From positions 1-41,364 of the IMG/VR virus record IMGVR_UViG_2909257012_000006: DNA of 41,364 nt, one strand, 5' to 3'. Below are positions 1,267-25,826 of this stretch, piece by piece. A program made the position numbers and the translations under genes. The stretch comes from a virus. Taxonomy: Duplodnaviria; Heunggongvirae; Uroviricota; Caudoviricetes. The first letter of the stretch is position 1; each line of letters begins with the position of its first letter. The notes under the pieces are model-generated. The model ran no database searches and was not told where the DNA came from. It saw only the letters and a list, made by a program, of their open reading frames with translations.

Positions 1267-3450
1267 CTATCTAATCCTGAACATTACAATTGGAGCAGAG
1301 CCAGAAGATAAAGGGCCTGACCAATGGTATCTAATTCTGAAAGAAGACTCACTTGGAGTTCCGATAATTTCTATTGGACTTAAAGTTGCACCTTCTGCAG
1401 AACCAGCAGGTTGTCTAAACCCCAACACAGCAATCTGGTTTGGTGTTGGGGCATACAGAAAATTATGCTCAATATCAACCTCGTTAGATTCGCTACCTGT
1501 TGGGTTTGGCATATTCCACTCAATATAATCGTCAGTTGATTTACCATTTATTGAGTTTCCAACTGTTGCCATAATCGTCCACGTACACGTCCTGTTAAGG
1601 GCTGCCATTCTATCACCTAAAAACCTATTATAACCATTTGCGCCTGAAGTGATTAATCTTATATTCTCTGATGCACATGTGCCAATGCTGTTAAATCCAG
1701 TGCAATCAGAAGAAAGCCCCTTCGCAGTTATATCTACGCTGTTCGCAAAACAAATTGTTGTTGAATTTACTGCATCGCGAATAAGAGCAGAACCCGAAAA
1801 CAAATTATCACACGAACCTCTTATATTATTACCACCGCCGGATAAGTAACATAAATTTCCTTTTATCCTCTTGGATGTAAAAGTAACATTGTTATTGTCA
1901 CCAGTAACAGAAAGAAGCGAGGCTTTAATAGGGGCATTGTCACTCTGTAACTGACCAATTTGGTTTATTGTAACTACATTGTTGTTGCCTGATATAGCTA
2001 TCTGATACCCATCATCATCAATTGAAGGTGAATATCTTTGTGCTTTTATATTGATGTTAAGTGTCCAGATTGTACCGTTATCCAGAAGCATGTCGCGGAG
2101 AGGAGAAATTGAATCGCCAGTGTAGTTATCTGGCATTCTTCCACACGCCCTGGCTTCTGCGATGGCAACAACACCATGTGCCCCGTTGGTAAACCAGTAA
2201 CCACCTAAACTATTATCAACACACACGTGCCTCGCATTGAATCGGTTAACACCCAGCGTCTTAAATCCATAGCCATAATACACAGCATATACATGGATGT
2301 AATTTATATCGACATGTCCTGTATAAGGAGACTGATTATCAAGAACAATTCCATGACATGGTTCTCCGGGATAAAGAAGGCTTTGTTGGCTTGTTGCTGT
2401 TAATCTTGCGCTGTAAGGAGGAAGTCCACACGGGCCAAAAACAATATAATCTAGGTTAATATCACCTGGCCCCCTGAACACAACCCCCTCTCTCCCTGAA
2501 ATTCTTCCCGTTATCCTCACTTCAGAGGCGTGTTCCTGATTATCATGAAATGATCCATACCCCTCTGAATAGAGAGCATGTTCTGCAACATTATTAATCT
2601 CAACGTCAATGTGGTACATGCTGCCGAATATTTTAATGGCAGTTCCATAGTCATTGTTAACAGTGTCGCAAGTTCTCCATGAGTTTGTATCTCTTTGCAA
2701 GTCAAGATAATTACCATCAATGGTCATATCTTTTATGCTAAATCCATATGGCGCATCAGACAGATTTTCCACAACGCCAAAGCCATGTGTTTTAAATACA
2801 TCTGTATTACTACCTTTTTTAACATACAGAAATGTTGCTCTCTTTCCAGAGCCTTTATGATGAACGCCTGTATAAAGAATGATAGGAGAATCTATTAAAT
2901 AAACACCTGGAGGGTAAAATATTTCCCCGCCACCATTATTAAAAGCAGCTAATGCTGCGGCATTAATGGCATCAGAATCTGATGTCAATCCATCTGCTTT
3001 AGCTCCATAGTATTGAGGTGTTTTCCTGATTGCATCGTAAACCGTTGAAGCGCCGAAACCGATATATTTACTACCATCTGTACCGCCAATAAGTAATTTA
3101 AACTGATCCGGGTCATACTTCAGCACATTCGGAAAATAGAACTGCTGTGTACCATACGCATCATAAACAGCCATAGAATGGCCTTGCACGGTTACGAATT
3201 TGGCAATCTGTCCGTTATATACCGGATATCCAGCAGCGTTAATGATTATTGGTTGCGAAACAGGAACGTGAGAACCGTCTTCATTCTCCACATAAACCTG
3301 AATCTGGTTTTCAGGGTTTACCGGGTCAGTGTCAATTTTACCGATATAAATTTTGCCATTGGCATTTGCTTTAAACGAGCGAGCTAAAGTAAATAACTGA
3401 CTTGGTTGTGAAACAACAACGTTGTATAATTGTTCTGGCATAATAAACAT
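1267..3450 (-). CDS. Tailspike protein; P22-like N-terminal head-binding domain with a different receptor-binding domain
   Basis: 727 aa; N-terminus [37 protein letters not shown]...[13 protein letters not shown] matches recalled P22 gp9 head-binding domain; remainder diverges. Confidence 0.85.
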
Positions 3451-3463
3451 TCCGGAGAAAATA

Positions 3464-3964
3464 ATGAGTAAAAGACGTCACGAGGTAGTAACTCGGGAGC
3501 GCCTTATGGAGGTTCTCGATTACAATAAAGAAACAGGAATTTTCACTTGGAAAAAGAAATTAAGCGCCAGAGGTGCTGTTGGGAAAGTTGCTGGCACAAT
3601 TTCTTATGGATATAACGCAATTAATATTGATGGCGTAAGATATTTTGCACATAGACTTGCCTGGCTGTATGTATATGGCGAATGGCCCAAACAAGAGATT
3701 GACCACATTGATAGAAATAGAAGAAATAACGCAATCTCAAACCTTAGGGATGTCAGCAGAGTCGTAAACGCATTAAATGTCGGACCTCGAAATAGCAATG
3801 CTGGAATCAAGGGGGTAACTTTCTGTCAAGCCAGAAATCAATGGCAAGCTCAGATAAATGTCTCAGGTAAAAACATAACCCTTGGGAGATTCAACACCAT
3901 TGATGAAGCGGCTATAGCTTATAAGGCAGCAAACATGGTTGCTGACCATCTGTTGAGTAGGTAA
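3464..3964 (+). CDS. HNH endonuclease with AP2-like DNA-binding domain (homing-endonuclease-like), paralog of 25106..25597
   Basis: Motifs [13 protein letters not shown]...[17 protein letters not shown] and GIKGVTF; GGAG RBS 6 nt upstream of ATG at 3464. Confidence 0.75.
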
Positions 3965-4106
3965 TGTCTGTCATTTAATTTGCTCCAGATACAAGGAATC
4001 ACCGCAGCATGGCTACGGTTGGAATTTGTTACATACCTAAACGGTACGATTGTTGATTTGTACAGTGGGTTTTACGATGCCATTCCACCCATTTGGTGAG
4101 GCATTG

Positions 4107-4364
4107 ATGATGTACAGCAAATACGATGAGGCGCAGTTCCACTTGAGGCTTACACACGAGTTGCACGCTAAGATTAAGCAGCGTGCAAAAATGAATAACA
4201 GGTCTATCAATTCCGAAATTGTGGCTACGATGGAAGAATCACTCTCCAAACCATCACCTGTAAGCGGGTATCGTGATGAAGAAGAGAGGCTGGCCTCATT
4301 AATCTCGGAACGAGTAAAAGAAGTTGCGGCTGATATCCTTAGAAAAGAAAAAACCCGCGATTAA
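4107..4364 (+). CDS. mnt: Mnt-like ribbon-helix-helix repressor (Arc/MetJ family)
   Basis: FHLRLTHELHAKIKQRAKMNNRSINSEIV...SLSKPSPVSGYRDEEERLA resembles recalled P22 Mnt; start chosen at ATG with GGTGAGG RBS. Confidence 0.65.
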   Translation: MMYSKYDEAQFHLRLTHELHAKIKQRAKMNNRSINSEIVATMEESLSKPSPVSGYRDEEERLASLISERVKEVAADILRKEKTRD

Positions 4365-4375
4365 GCGGGTTTAGT
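4353..4375. terminator. Bidirectional rho-independent terminator (ACCCGC-GATTAA-GCGGGT) between convergent genes
   Basis: Hairpin with T-run on - strand side (TTTTTCTTTTCT); mnt-like stop codon lies in the loop. Confidence 0.55.
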
Positions 4376-4378
4376 TGG

Positions 4379-4600
4379 TTAGTTATCAAAAAGTCCGTAC
4401 GTTTCTTCTTCTTCAGGTGTAAGGGGAAGAATCTCTACTCTATCTATAGATACCTTTTCAATGTACCCATGAGGTCTACTTAAAATTAAAGCTCTCTCAT
4501 GCCACAGAACTCCAAGAATGTGATACCTTCCAGCATCGCCTTTTACCCTGGCTCTTCCTTTGATTCTTGGAGGCATAATGCCATATTTTTTCTTTGCCAT
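4379..4600 (-). CDS. Hypothetical protein, last gene of ant operon
   Basis: 73-aa ORF abutting upstream gene; no recognisable motif. Confidence 0.45.
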   Translation of the reverse strand: MAKKKYGIMPPRIKGRARVKGDAGRYHILGVLWHERALILSRPHGYIEKVSIDRVEILPLTPEEEETYGLFDN

Positions 4601-5328
4601 TATGCAACATTACTCCCATGAATCAGGTGTTGTAGTGCTTTAACACCTTCCGCATTGTAGCGGAATGCTTCCACCTGTTTGCTGGAATGCGCAGATTTAT
4701 CCAGGAAGAACTTCCCGTACTGCTCAGTTTTGAGGTTGTTTGCGTTAGCAATGCGACCAATCTTGTTGGCCGTTACTCCAAGCTGCTCTGCAACCTCCCC
4801 TGCTGAGTAGTAATGCTCTTCTATTGCCGGAAGAGGTATTGCATTAAAACCAACGAGCGGGTTGATTATACTTGCTGCCGCTGTCTGCTTTGCCTCAGGC
4901 GCAAGATTTGGCATCAGATCGAACAGATTGGTAACAGCTTCAACCGTCATTTTCAGTGTTCGCGCCTGGCGATACTCAACAAGTCCACTCGACGATTTAC
5001 CGCTTTTAATGTGCGCTTCTTGCATACTTTCAAGTTGGTCTACAAGTGAGCGGCGAACAGCTTTAGATTCACGAGCAGCCACTCGAAGGGCTTGCTTAAT
5101 TGACATAACAACTTTTTCAGAAGTTGTCTTGTTTGATTTTTGAACTACGAAAATTTCGTAGTGCTCACCTTCAAGTTCATCCTTAATGCGTGCAATAAAG
5201 TCGTTATTGCGAACTTCTTTTTCCCCGCACTGTCTACGAGCATGATTGACCATCTCTAACAGGTACTGGCTATCAATGGTTTTATCCGTGACAACGGATC
5301 CGATGTTTGCTACATTCTTAAAAGTCAT
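4600..5328 (-). CDS. Second antirepressor-like protein with C-terminal KilA-C/ANT domain
   Basis: C-terminal YSAGEVAEQLGVTANKIGRIANANNLKTEQYGKFF motif; ATG at 5328 has AGGA RBS (the track ORF starts at a TTG at 5415). Confidence 0.6.
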   Translation of the reverse strand: MTFKNVANIGSVVTDKTIDSQYLLEMVNHARRQCGEKEVRNNDFIARIKDELEGEHYEIFVVQKSNKTTSEKVVMSIKQALRVAARESKAVRRSLVDQLESMQEAHIKSGKSSSGLVEYRQARTLKMTVEAVTNLFDLMPNLAPEAKQTAAASIINPLVGFNAIPLPAIEEHYYSAGEVAEQLGVTANKIGRIANANNLKTEQYGKFFLDKSAHSSKQVEAFRYNAEGVKALQHLIHGSNVA

Positions 5329-5415
5329 TAGGCATTCCTTATGTGGTAGTAAGGGTGTGACATAGGCCGCCAGCAGCACACTGGCGGTTTTCTTTTGCGC
5401 CGTCCTGGGCACCAA

Positions 5416-6054
5416 TCAATGAATCCATTCCTCGCCGCGAAGTTTTGCCAGCATTGGCTGAGCGTTCTTTACGACAAAATTGTTGGGATCAAGATTCTTC
5501 ATTTCACGAAGAAGCGATTTCTTGGTTTCTTCTGACATGTAGCGAGTCTCATATGCAATATCGTAAATCCTTCCTGAAAGCTCAGAACCAATTTGCTTCA
5601 TTCCTGGGTAGATGTGTTTGCACATTTGTTGACTCTTCTCCATCCACAATTGTAAGTAGCAGAGATTAACCAGTTCTTCGTCAGTAAACTGTTTTGCAAT
5701 CGGTGAGCATTCTGCCTGCCGATCCAAAATATCCAGCACCCAGCGGCGGAACTCTTTGGCCTTGGGCGTAGAAGCAAACATCGCCACCAAGTGAGCGCCT
5801 CGGAGCGAGTAAACTCTGACCGATTTGTTACGTAAGCTATTGTTTATTCCGTTGACCTTCATATTGAGGGTCAATGACATTGAGTCGGAAAATTCGTCAG
5901 CATTACGGGCATAAATTTGGCTGATGGCATCAGTTTTTTTATAGCCGAGAGCCTTAGCTAGTTCGGCGGAGGTGAACCAGATAGACCCGCCCTCTGTTAC
6001 AGGGTTAAAAGTGAATCCTTGGAAGTTATAATCTGATTTTGCTACAATATTCAT
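5416..6054 (-). CDS. ant: Antirepressor with Bro-N domain
   Basis: Bro-N-like N-terminus FQGFTFNPVTEGGSIWFTSAELAKALGY; ATG at 6054 with AAGGA RBS; position downstream of arc. Confidence 0.65.
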   Translation of the reverse strand: MNIVAKSDYNFQGFTFNPVTEGGSIWFTSAELAKALGYKKTDAISQIYARNADEFSDSMSLTLNMKVNGINNSLRNKSVRVYSLRGAHLVAMFASTPKAKEFRRWVLDILDRQAECSPIAKQFTDEELVNLCYLQLWMEKSQQMCKHIYPGMKQIGSELSGRIYDIAYETRYMSEETKKSLLREMKNLDPNNFVVKNAQPMLAKLRGEEWIH

Positions 6055-6127
6055 GTTAGTTTCCTTGGGTACGGTTACTGACATAGAGGCCCGGTTTGTG
6101 TTCGCGCACTTCCGGGCTTCACTATTT

Positions 6128-6304
6128 TTACTGGGCATTAGCTCTTTCCTCTCTCAGGCTTTTAGCCAGTCGCTGCACAATCGCAGAGTTGATAGAAATT
6201 CCATCCATTTCAGCTACGCGTCTGATCTCCTCCTTCATTCGCGCTGGCAAACGAAGCTGGAAACTCTGACTTTTACGACCACTGTAAAGAACATCGCTCA
6301 TCAT
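6128..6304 (-). CDS. arc: Arc-like ribbon-helix-helix repressor
   Basis: SQSFQLRLPARMKEEIRRVAEMDGISINSAIVQRL resembles recalled P22 Arc; GGAG RBS before ATG at 6304. Confidence 0.65.
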   Translation of the reverse strand: MMSDVLYSGRKSQSFQLRLPARMKEEIRRVAEMDGISINSAIVQRLAKSLREERANAQ

Positions 6305-6320
6305 CAATATCTCCGTCATA

Positions 6321-6341
6321 ATGACATCACCATGATGTCAT
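6321..6341. promoter_or_regulatory. 21-bp palindrome ATGACATCA-CCA-TGATGTCAT in arc/mnt divergent control region; candidate operator
   Basis: Perfect 9-bp half sites seen directly; located between divergent RHH repressor genes. Confidence 0.4.
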
Positions 6342-6421
6342 GACACCATTATGATGCCATTGCTCATAATGTCAATATGATGCTACTGTGTTTTTTATTG
6401 CTCATATGCCTTGCGAATAAG

Positions 6422-6676
6422 AAAATGTCAGAAAAAGACGAATCAAATTTCATAGAAAGATTTACGGTTAGAATGCCTGACGGCATGCGTAGTGCTATTG
6501 CGGAAAGGGCTAAACGAAACGGTCGATCTATGAACTCAGAGATAGTTCAAATTCTTGAGGATGCGTTATCATCTGACGTCTCATCAGTAGACAAATCATT
6601 AGATCTTAAACAAATAAAATCTTTACTTGATAAAATTTCCAACGAGTTACTGGATAGAATCCCAAAAGACACATAA
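6422..6676 (+). CDS. Second RHH (Arc/Mnt-family) repressor, divergent from arc
   Basis: FTVRMPDGMRSAIAERAKRNGRSMNSEIVQIL RHH signature; start uncertain (weak RBS). Confidence 0.55.
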   Translation, partial: KMSEKDESNFIERFTVRMPDGMRSAIAERAKRNGRSMNSEIVQILEDALSSDVSSVDKSLDLKQIKSLLDKISNELLDRIPKDT

Positions 6677-24974: not shown

Positions 24975-25105
24975 TGCATTTTACAGACCTCTCAGCCTGC
25001 GATGGTTGGAGTTCCAGACGATACGTCGAAGTGACCAACTAGGCGGAATCGGTAGTAAGCGCCGCCTCTTTTTATCTCACTACCACAACGAGCGAATTAA
25101 CCCAT

Positions 25106-25597
25106 CTATCCCATACTGGAGAATTCACCATGATATTTTATCCTGGCATTTTCCATTGCCTTTCTAGCCTCCTCGATATCGTCAAAACACCCTACATGAA
25201 TCCTTTTACCATTGACTCTAATTCTTCCAACCCACTTGTTTGCAGCAGAATTAAAAGTCACCCCCTTCACACCAGATGAATTGTTTTTCCTCATCTTGCT
25301 GTTCCATGAGTTTTGAGTGTTAGTAACAACACGAAGATTGGCTATCCGGTTATCAGACCTATCACCATTAATATGGTCAATCACATCGGCTGGCCAATCA
25401 TTGTAAACCATCAGCCATGCAATTCTGTGGACATATAGCCGCATTCCATAAAGTTTTACCTGCAGATATCCATTTGTTTTATAGCCAACAACAGCGCCAT
25501 AGGTAAATCTAGAGGACCGAGGTGGATTCCTCCATGTAAGAATTCCAGTATCTGGATTGTAATTAAAAAGTCTCAATGCATCTTCACGTTTTAACAT
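25106..25597 (-). CDS. HNH endonuclease with AP2-like domain (homing-endonuclease-like), inserted in pR' leader
   Basis: HRIAWLMVYNDWPADVIDHINGDRSDNRIANLR and GVKGVTF...KWVGRIRVNGKRIHVGCFDDIEEARKA motifs; paralog of 3464..3964. Confidence 0.75.
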   Translation of the reverse strand: MLKREDALRLFNYNPDTGILTWRNPPRSSRFTYGAVVGYKTNGYLQVKLYGMRLYVHRIAWLMVYNDWPADVIDHINGDRSDNRIANLRVVTNTQNSWNSKMRKNNSSGVKGVTFNSAANKWVGRIRVNGKRIHVGCFDDIEEARKAMENARIKYHGEFSSMG

Positions 25598-25797
25598 AGG
25601 CGAACCACATAGATATTAGAGCCTGCTGACATAGAAATATCACCACGAGAGAAGTCGCCAAAAGCGATATTTCTCAGGCTCTATTCCTATGTGCTCTCGA
25701 GTTTATGATGCGCATGTCAGTGCGCTTAGAACTTAAAGATGAGGTGGGTAAAAACTGAAAGAATGTGAACGGATATAAATCTGCCATTCTTGAGTCA

Positions 25798-25826
25798 AAT
25801 TTACCCAACTTTATTCAAAAAGTCAA
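25798..25826 (-). promoter_or_regulatory. Late promoter pR' with Q-utilisation region (lambda type)
   Basis: On - strand TTGACT-17 bp-TAAATT then TGACTCAAGAATGG; matches recalled lambda pR' apart from a few bases; directly downstream of Q. Confidence 0.8.

Follow-up and report, generated by a model that had tools for sequence, protein, structure and literature searches.

A free-standing HNH-AP2 gene at the tailspike translation start of a P22-like phage, probably a homing endonuclease

HNH-1, the HNH-AP2 gene that lies between the tailspike gene and the immI-type region of the phage genome analysed here, is probably a free-standing homing-endonuclease gene with the tailspike translation start of P22-like phages as its fixed home. 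The comparative sequence evidence points in this direction, as the conserved and fixed site, its splitting in the occupied state, the tract inherited together with the gene and the signs of recent spread all fit homing. The HNH-AP2 family is known already, having been described as phage homing endonucleases by Magnani et al. 2004, according to the citation of that work in PMC10448857, and relatives named 'IPA-HNH' occur in ICP1 (PMC10448857); HNH-1 is a new, well-delimited addition to it. As such, it would illustrate cleanly, and in a natural setting, how a nuclease gene of homing type can become tied to the beginning of an essential gene for host range, here in temperate phages of enterobacteria. 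The window, by which we mean the whole stretch of 41,364 nucleotides, represents the complete genome of a P22-like (Lederbergvirus-type) phage in a linear form that begins with the integrase gene (1-1158, + strand), and the features discussed below are collected in Table 1. In agreement with the initial annotation, HNH-1 is encoded on the strand opposite to both of its larger neighbours, the tailspike gene and the antirepressor operon.

Table 1. Coordinates of the features discussed in the text (positions in the window)
Feature	Position	Strand	Details
Tailspike gene	1267-3441	-	From the list of open reading frames
Rare tailspike allele, codons 7-27	3364-3421	-	Inside the near-clonal segment 3344-3963
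Candidate sigma-70 promoter for HNH-1	3402-3430	+	TTGGTT 3402-3407, 17-nt spacer, TATAAT 3425-3430
Spacer between the two divergent start codons	3442-3463		22 nt; from the sequence
HNH-1, 166-aa HNH_3 + AP2 protein	3464-3964	+	ATG 3464-3466, TAA 3962-3964; Pfam, phrog_99
Dead second tailspike translation start	3961-3989	-	SD GGAG 3986-3983, ATG 3974-3972
Boundary sequence 'bsq1' (CUS-3 annotation)	3961-4027		67 bp; megablast, annotation, alignment
RHH-1, Mnt-family repressor homologue	4107-4364	+	Arc/RHH domain, E 4e-15, 55.8 bits
Hairpin between convergent RHH-1 and 73-aa gene	4351-4372		Candidate bidirectional terminator; T-runs on both sides
Antirepressor operon	6319-4379	-	Strand opposite to HNH-1
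73-aa gene (phrog_4977)	4379-4600	-	immI-type region
KilA-like antirepressor (phrog_1726)	4600-5331	-	immI-type region
Antirepressor with Bro-N and P22_AR_C domains	5416-6138	-	immI-type region
Arc	6128-6319	-	immI-type region; one of three Arc/Mnt-type RHH genes
Second + strand RHH gene	6425-6676	+	Classical mnt position beside arc-ant; divergent from arc-ant
HNH-2 cassette	25102-25783	-	682-bp insertion in the lambda-type pR' leader; ORF 25106-25597

When the tailspike-immI junctions of related phages are compared, as the initial annotation had suggested, the HNH gene proves to be present in Kapi1 and missing from N7, 720R6, CUS-3, epsilon34 and JEP4. Positions 3300-4027, which comprise the tailspike 5′ end, the HNH gene and the boundary sequence, are 98.8% identical to Kapi1 (megablast), where an antirepressor gene follows the HNH segment directly and there is no RHH gene. 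Positions 3962-4700, covering the boundary sequence and the RHH, 73-aa and KilA-like genes, are 98.1% identical to the HNH-less JEP4. In the HNH-free N7, 720R6, CUS-3 and epsilon34, the counterpart of 3961-4027 abuts the canonical tailspike start codon directly, and the empty junction (in N7, CUS-3 or P22) reads ...CTGGAGCAAATTAAATGACAGACATTACAGCCAATGTG...; in JEP4, the boundary sequence is present without the HNH gene, but does not abut the canonical tailspike start. The split matches to Kapi1 and JEP4, combined with the direct abutment in HNH-free phages, indicate that the HNH gene is an optional cassette of ~540 bp.

Among 5,426 complete Escherichia coli genomes, 1,093 contain the junction region, and the HNH gene is found there in 14 of them (~1.3% of sites). 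What lies to its right varies among these genomes: it may be an ant-arc-mnt set, ejection genes behind a Mnt-type gene, or an ejection gene directly, and in one arrangement the final 48 nt of the HNH ORF have given way to an unrelated element. Searching IMG/VR, together with one genome per species, yielded 30 further orthologue loci (29 from IMG/VR and one from Escherichia sp. ESNIH1; 76-100% identity), and in every one of these the HNH gene is separated by 13-24 nt from a tailspike head-binding-domain start and points away from it.

The cassette appears to have spread recently. Across 25 loci with near-identical HNH genes, pairwise diversity is 5-16% at 3104-3343, at most ~1% at 3344-3943 and higher again past the stop codon, the near-clonal tract thus consisting of the cassette and ~100 bp of its left flank. 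The 25-26 loci of this kind combine 20 different tailspike bodies with 10 different right flanks, and the occurrence of a near-clonal segment in such diverse backgrounds argues for recent horizontal spread. The ongoing endonuclease mobility that had been proposed from the sequence alone is therefore supported by comparative evidence, namely an optional insertion at a fixed site and a near-clonal cassette in diverse phages. Association with the site is also old: between HNH-1 and its ESNIH1 orthologue, pN is 0.12 and pS is 0.77, the latter being saturated, which means that selection has maintained the protein while the gene diverged over a long time at this single site. Over the 62 nt at 3401-3462, identity to ESNIH1 is 93.5%, with both flanks reaching only 66-74%.

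The anatomy of the insertion shows how tightly the gene is fitted into the tailspike start. In alignments with the HNH-less N7, 720R6, CUS-3 and epsilon34, the HNH-1 stop codon falls inside a second, dead copy of that start, which retains the SD site, the ATG and 14 nt of the open reading frame (ATGACAGACATTAC, MTDIT). The live tailspike start, in its MPEQLY version, lies 22 nt from the HNH-1 ATG and is divergent from it, and the Shine-Dalgarno (SD) sites of the two genes both overlap the palindrome TCCGGA (3451-3456; the HNH GGAG is at 3454-3457). An alternative tailspike ATG at 3450 would yield MFIMPEQLY; the tailspike coding sequences annotated in GN04171 and Kapi1 begin at the counterpart of position 3441. 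On the other side of the gene, bsq1 includes a hairpin (4001-4019) that the scanner classed as terminator-like on the - strand.

Live and dead starts were compared in three lineages. The diverged lineages L035, L038, L042 and L043 of the element have, besides the dead copy, a live start that is still ancestral in type (MTDSIIANVV, MTDNITANVVV); the tailspike start region, from the SD site to codon 5-6, is therefore duplicated around a bare HNH ORF. In the light of these four lineages, the idea that the tailspike N-terminus had been replaced was revised. The MPEQLY start differs from MTDSIIA by a compensated frameshift, in which the nucleotides CAATTATA are kept. Since Kapi1 is an isolated infectious phage with the same HNH/tailspike arrangement, the rebuilt tailspike start evidently works; for annotation, it matters that the tailspike start codon in HNH-1-type phages differs from the canonical MTDIT start. 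The rare tailspike allele at codons 7-27 always accompanies HNH-1 in HNH-positive E. coli genomes, and the segment 3360-3466 is complete only in the 14 HNH-positive genomes and partial in the HNH-less strain GF43. Without the HNH gene, the allele occurs in GF43 and in two MLI104 strains, where an IS1 insertion cuts it short. It had been considered that the cassette brought with it the diverged first 27 codons of the tailspike gene; this was partly rejected, codons 7-27 being a natural allele that GF43 also carries.

The protein itself has the make-up expected of this family. Its HNH_3 domain exceeds the Pfam cut-off (E 2.1e-16, 59.7 bits), and its AP2 match (E 3.6e-6, 27.6 bits) remains under the cut-off of 33.3 bits but is backed by the precomputed PF00847 (AP2) match of orthologues and by the structural model, so that the HNH_3-AP2 assignment made initially is upheld. 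In an AlphaFold2 model built on 45 homologues (mean pLDDT 88.8), the C-terminal part superimposes on the plant AP2 domains 7et4/7et5 and 1gcc at 1.2-1.4 Å rmsd (Foldseek). The N-terminal part, over ~96 residues, has as its top Foldseek match I-HmuI, the intron-encoded HNH nicking endonuclease of SPO1 (1u3e), with which it also shares an aligned D-H...N...N motif. The two proteins are only 25% identical, with a marginal sequence E-value of 0.07, and they differ in that I-HmuI is intron-encoded and carries a helix-turn-helix C-terminal DNA-binding part where HNH-1 has AP2. Across the 45 homologues, D80, N89, N93 and N105 are invariant and H81 and N102 nearly so. HNH-1 is, as far as the model and the conserved residues allow its activities to be predicted, an I-HmuI-like HNH nuclease part joined to a C-terminal AP2 DNA-binding domain. 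The sole PADLOC model that matches it is 'HEase' (homing endonuclease), and NCBIfam gave no match for the HNH proteins. HNH-AP2 homologues are found in 2,577 phage records, many of them annotated as homing endonucleases, and the relatives of HNH-1 in the phage collection are all less than 60% identical to it, except that of Kapi1.

We propose that HNH-1 would act when an HNH-positive phage meets an HNH-free relative, either by co-infection or by infection of a lysogen. The nuclease would nick or cut the intact tailspike-start sequence of the empty allele, and the break would be repaired by recombination through the conserved head-binding coding sequence on one side and bsq1 on the other, the repair copying the HNH gene and, with it, a short co-conversion tract. 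An allele already occupied would be spared, because there the insertion splits the site.

HNH-1 itself would be read from a weak promoter of its own inside tailspike codons. The candidate sequence lies within codons 4-13 of the tailspike gene, and the nucleotides CAATTATA provide its TATAAT on the HNH strand. A -10-like hexamer occurs 31-35 nt upstream of the HNH ATG in the compared lineages, reading TATAAT mostly, TATGAT in two and TATTAT/TGTGAT in L038, and its position is constant even though the overlapping tailspike codons read QLY, SIIA, TIIP or NIT. The -35 hexamer is weak (3/6), failing the scanner rule of at least 4/6 in this hexamer, and HNH-free alleles already show TGTAAT (5/6) at the -10 position. 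The stretch 3402-3430 may act as the HNH-1 promoter. The late transcript must traverse HNH-1 in antisense before it reaches the tailspike gene, and HNH-1, being opposed to this transcript, is probably expressed at a low level. The Kapi1 literature makes no mention of the HNH gene, and a search for expression data on it found none.

HNH-1 resembles the HNH-AP2 homing endonucleases in its two-domain architecture, size and catalytic motif, and also in being optional, in occupying a fixed site and in lying at a boundary of genetic exchange. It differs from them in that its phage is temperate and P22-like, in that it runs antisense to the late transcript, and in its position inside the duplicated translation start of an essential structural gene. 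A further comparison is offered by the free-standing homing endonucleases of T4 (Seg, Mob), which co-convert flanking markers. These belong to lytic phages and mostly to other nuclease families (GIY-YIG for Seg, HNH with a zinc finger for Mob). As with Seg and Mob, HNH-1 is an intron-less cassette between or inside genes and is accompanied by a short near-clonal flanking tract, whereas its homing is only inferred and that of the T4 genes has been demonstrated experimentally.

At ~1.3%, the occupancy of the site is below what would be expected of a strongly driving element. The cassette also sits at a known module boundary of highly mosaic phages, where ordinary homologous recombination could suffice to transfer it, with no need for the nuclease. 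Since JEP4 keeps the dead start beside a different tailspike, modules recurrently join at this site in the absence of HNH as well. Phage nuclease genes tend to lie at exchange boundaries (PMC10448857), and the recurrence of a junction at the tailspike start agrees with this tendency.

Given the low occupancy (14 of ~1,093 genomes) and the mosaicism of P22-like phages, the cassette might instead have spread passively, by ordinary recombination at conserved flanks, or have taken on a domesticated role. HNH-1 would then no longer home, but be carried along by homologous recombination at the head-binding domain and bsq1, its nuclease being kept for some other benefit, such as an attack on rival P22-like phages or prophages or a boost to recombination at the boundary of the tailspike module. 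Strong purifying selection through long divergence at a single site could be read in this way, as could the recurrence of the module junction without HNH and the described placement of nuclease genes at exchange boundaries (PMC10448857). We nevertheless consider this account unlikely, given that the sharp step in diversity at both ends of the ~620-bp segment is what would be expected of short co-conversion tracts around a break, that those family relatives which have a name are all annotated as homing endonucleases, and that no defence-system model beyond 'HEase' matches. Moreover, this account overlaps with homing and does not exclude it.

A wider consequence of the nuclease, and one that we regard as doubtful, is conceivable: by cutting at bsq1/tailspike start, HNH-1 might drive the exchange of receptor-binding tailspike bodies and immI genes among P22-like phages. 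If so, a selfish nuclease would be one engine of host-range shuffling, with boundary sequences as its landing and repair sites. With empty and occupied alleles, a candidate target site and the infectious Kapi1 in hand, both homing and tailspike-module exchange are directly testable.

It seems very improbable that HNH-1 is mainly a DNA-binding regulator, acting through AP2 on, for example, tailspike or immI expression, with its nuclease inactive. AP2 domains have been co-opted as phage repressors (bioRxiv 10.64898/2026.02.23.707548), and HNH-1 does overlap the tailspike translation signals; still, the 45 homologues show little or no variation at its catalytic D-H and Asn residues, and a regulator that is needed could not be missing from ~99% of otherwise similar phages.

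The initial annotation had also raised the possibility that HNH-1 and RHH-1 form a toxin/antitoxin-like or exclusion pair, in which the RHH protein neutralizes or represses the nuclease, and this we find scarcely credible in view of how the two genes are distributed. They are adjacent and on the same strand in the window, yet each occurs without the other: an RHH gene 99% identical to RHH-1 is found in the HNH-less JEP4, and an identical HNH gene without an RHH gene beside it in Kapi1 and at many other loci. A directly adjacent RHH gene is lacking at the HNH genes of Kapi1, GN04171, GF66.2 and 30COLEC, and at 10 of the 20 near-identical IMG/VR loci; what the HNH gene always has beside it is the tailspike start. 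Conversely, HNH-free relatives (720R6, JEP4 and many E. coli prophages) have a Mnt-type gene at the same place, directly beside the boundary sequence. RHH-1 would stand next to HNH-1 only as a result of the HNH gene's insertion between the tailspike gene and the usual neighbour of the latter. The arrangement of the two genes is likewise at odds with a pair, as RHH-1 is downstream of HNH-1 across a 142-nt spacer that holds the conserved bsq1, and the tight bicistronic layout typical of type II toxin-antitoxin systems (an overlap or a few nucleotides, with the antitoxin usually first) is absent. RHH folds do occur in antitoxins, and RHH-1 gives a HicB match of 25.8 bits, above the 21-bit cut-off but over 28 residues only, and a FitA-like match of 22.5 bits, under the 27-bit cut-off. 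Both are far below the 55.8 bits of Arc and, since HicB, FitA-like and Arc are related RHH families, such weak matches do not separate an antitoxin from a repressor; PADLOC gave no match for RHH-1.

RHH-1 is instead a full-length Mnt homologue, and its sequence and setting identify it as a Mnt-family repressor homologue of the immI region without partnership with HNH-1, so the gene should not be annotated as an antitoxin. The resemblance of its C-terminus to P22 Mnt, which had been noticed at the outset, is confirmed by an alignment to P22 Mnt (1mnt) over residues 7-79 that includes SKPSPVSGYRD (E 3e-16), and the protein shares 41-48% identity with Mnt of epsilon34, CUS-3 and 720R6 and 99% with JEP4 'mnt'. 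With P22 Mnt, it shares the RHH fold and the Mnt-type C-terminal part, and its place is in immI next to the tailspike boundary, where 720R6, VE-T9 and JEP4 also have their Mnt genes. It differs from P22 Mnt in the recognition residues of the beta-strand (QFHLRL in RHH-1, HFNFRM in Mnt), so that its operator probably differs as well, and we found no operator-like repeat common to the region upstream of RHH-1 and the arc-ant control region (6320-6424). A second difference is its orientation, which is convergent with the antirepressor operon and not divergent from it. The classical mnt position is held here by another RHH gene, the window containing three Arc/Mnt-type ribbon-helix-helix genes in total (Table 1). 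The module formed by RHH-1, the 73-aa gene and the KilA-like gene is common to the window and JEP4 (98%). The hairpin that separates RHH-1 from the 73-aa gene was called by the scanner on the - strand only; the candidate T-run for the other direction comes from reading the sequence, where the A-run before the hairpin on the + strand would make a T-run on the opposite strand. Rfam yielded no matches in the whole window.

A role of the kind played by terminase-associated HNH proteins of HK97 type is presumably also unlikely for HNH-1, which is not beside packaging genes and belongs to the HNH_3-AP2 family.

The second HNH-AP2 gene of the genome, HNH-2, bears out the view that the two are paralogues. 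Over 151 aa, the two proteins share 42% identity (BLASTP E 5e-39) and both are assigned to phrog_99, and the motif layout quoted for them is found in both copies, except that HNH-1 reads GIKGVTF where HNH-2 has GVKGVTF. The significant similarity is confined to the proteins, no similarity being detected between the flanks of the two cassettes. According to an alignment with lambda, the insertion point of HNH-2 is ~8 nt past the pR' start and precedes the 6S/tR' sequence. At this site lambda reads GACTCAACGATGG followed directly by GTTAATTCGC, and the window reads GACTCAAGAATGG, the insert, then GATAGATGG followed by GTTAATTCGC, with an ATGG repeat flanking the insert.

Judged from these sequences, HNH-2 is an insertion independent of HNH-1. 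A recent duplication of one copy into the other was rejected on account of the 42% identity, the unrelated flanks and the independent sites and host genomes. The suggestion that each copy marks an operon boundary needs to be narrowed, as HNH-1 lies within the duplicated tailspike translation start and HNH-2 within the pR' leader. That the phage carries two diverged copies holds, both being optional fixed-site insertions, each present in ~1% of the E. coli genomes that have the corresponding site; for HNH-2, these are 15 of the 1,239 genomes with a Q-pR' junction. Among the 5,426 complete E. coli genomes, the two copies occur together only in GN04171.

Among the comparison loci, the IMG/VR contig IMGVR_UViG_2541047955_000001 encodes proteins that are 100% identical to those of the window for HNH-1 (the HNH_3 and AP2 gene at the start of the tailspike gene), RHH-1 (the adjoining Mnt-family gene), the 73-aa gene and the KilA-like antirepressor gene, and its tailspike body differs from that of the window. 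This contig is a direct example of a swapped tailspike body beside an unchanged HNH cassette. The dead copy of the canonical tailspike start (ATGACAGATATTAT plus SD) is retained in phage JEP4 (about 3822-4010 of the locus), where the tailspike gene some 170 bp downstream is a different one with its own start. The canonical tailspike ORF thus has its first 14 nt within the conserved boundary sequence, and these 14 nt mark a recurrent recombination point. The hairpin within the boundary sequence is kept in every aligned relative but 720R6, with one or two base differences each in CUS-3 and epsilon34, and received a terminator-like score on the - strand in a terminator scan.

The window and JEP4 also have the module 3962-~5400 in common, at 98%. 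Besides the 73-aa gene, the immI region (4107-6676) contains three RHH genes of the Arc/Mnt type and a tandem of two unlike antirepressor genes, one Bro-N/P22_AR_C and the other KilA-like. It looks like two joined immI modules. The control region that separates arc from the divergent RHH gene (6316-6375) has three copies of TCATAATG/CATTATGA; both these copies and the palindrome overlap the promoter-like site on the - strand and are likely Arc/Mnt-type operators.

Sequence features of the window
Feature	Coordinates	Strand	Location
Hairpin ACCGCAGCATGGCTACGGT, 8-bp stem, conserved	4001-4019		Inside boundary sequence, just upstream of canonical tailspike start
21-bp palindrome ATGACATCACCATGATGTCAT	6321-6341		Between arc and divergent RHH gene
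Strong promoter-like site, TTGACA-16-CATAAT	6375-6348	-	
pR' -35	25826-25821		Upstream of HNH-2
pR' -10	25803-25798		Upstream of HNH-2

The paralogous gene, HNH-2, is contained in the short pR' leader transcript; in the region 25102-25826, the -35 and -10 elements are followed by ~8 transcribed nt, HNH-2 and then the 6S/tR' sequence. Because HNH-2 lies inside the leader, ahead of 6S/tR', it could be transcribed at every pR' firing, with no need for the antiterminator Q. In the sigma-dependent pause element, the window has AAGAAT where lambda has AACGAT, and the +16/17 pause position now falls within the inserted DNA. Both HNH segments (3464-3964 and 25102-25783) have a G+C content of ~41%, compared to 47% for the whole window, and that of the tailspike gene is likewise low (40%).

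In E. coli 30COLEC (4167-6116 of the locus), other sequence has taken the place of the final ~48 nt of the HNH ORF, so that the HNH gene continues into an ASCH-domain gene; a tyrosine recombinase and further genes come next. It appears that another mobile element landed within or next to the 3′ end of the HNH gene. In E. coli MLI104K2 (2475-3467 of the locus), where the prophage is decayed, an IS1 element interrupts the 5′ end of a tailspike gene with the rare HNH-associated allele.
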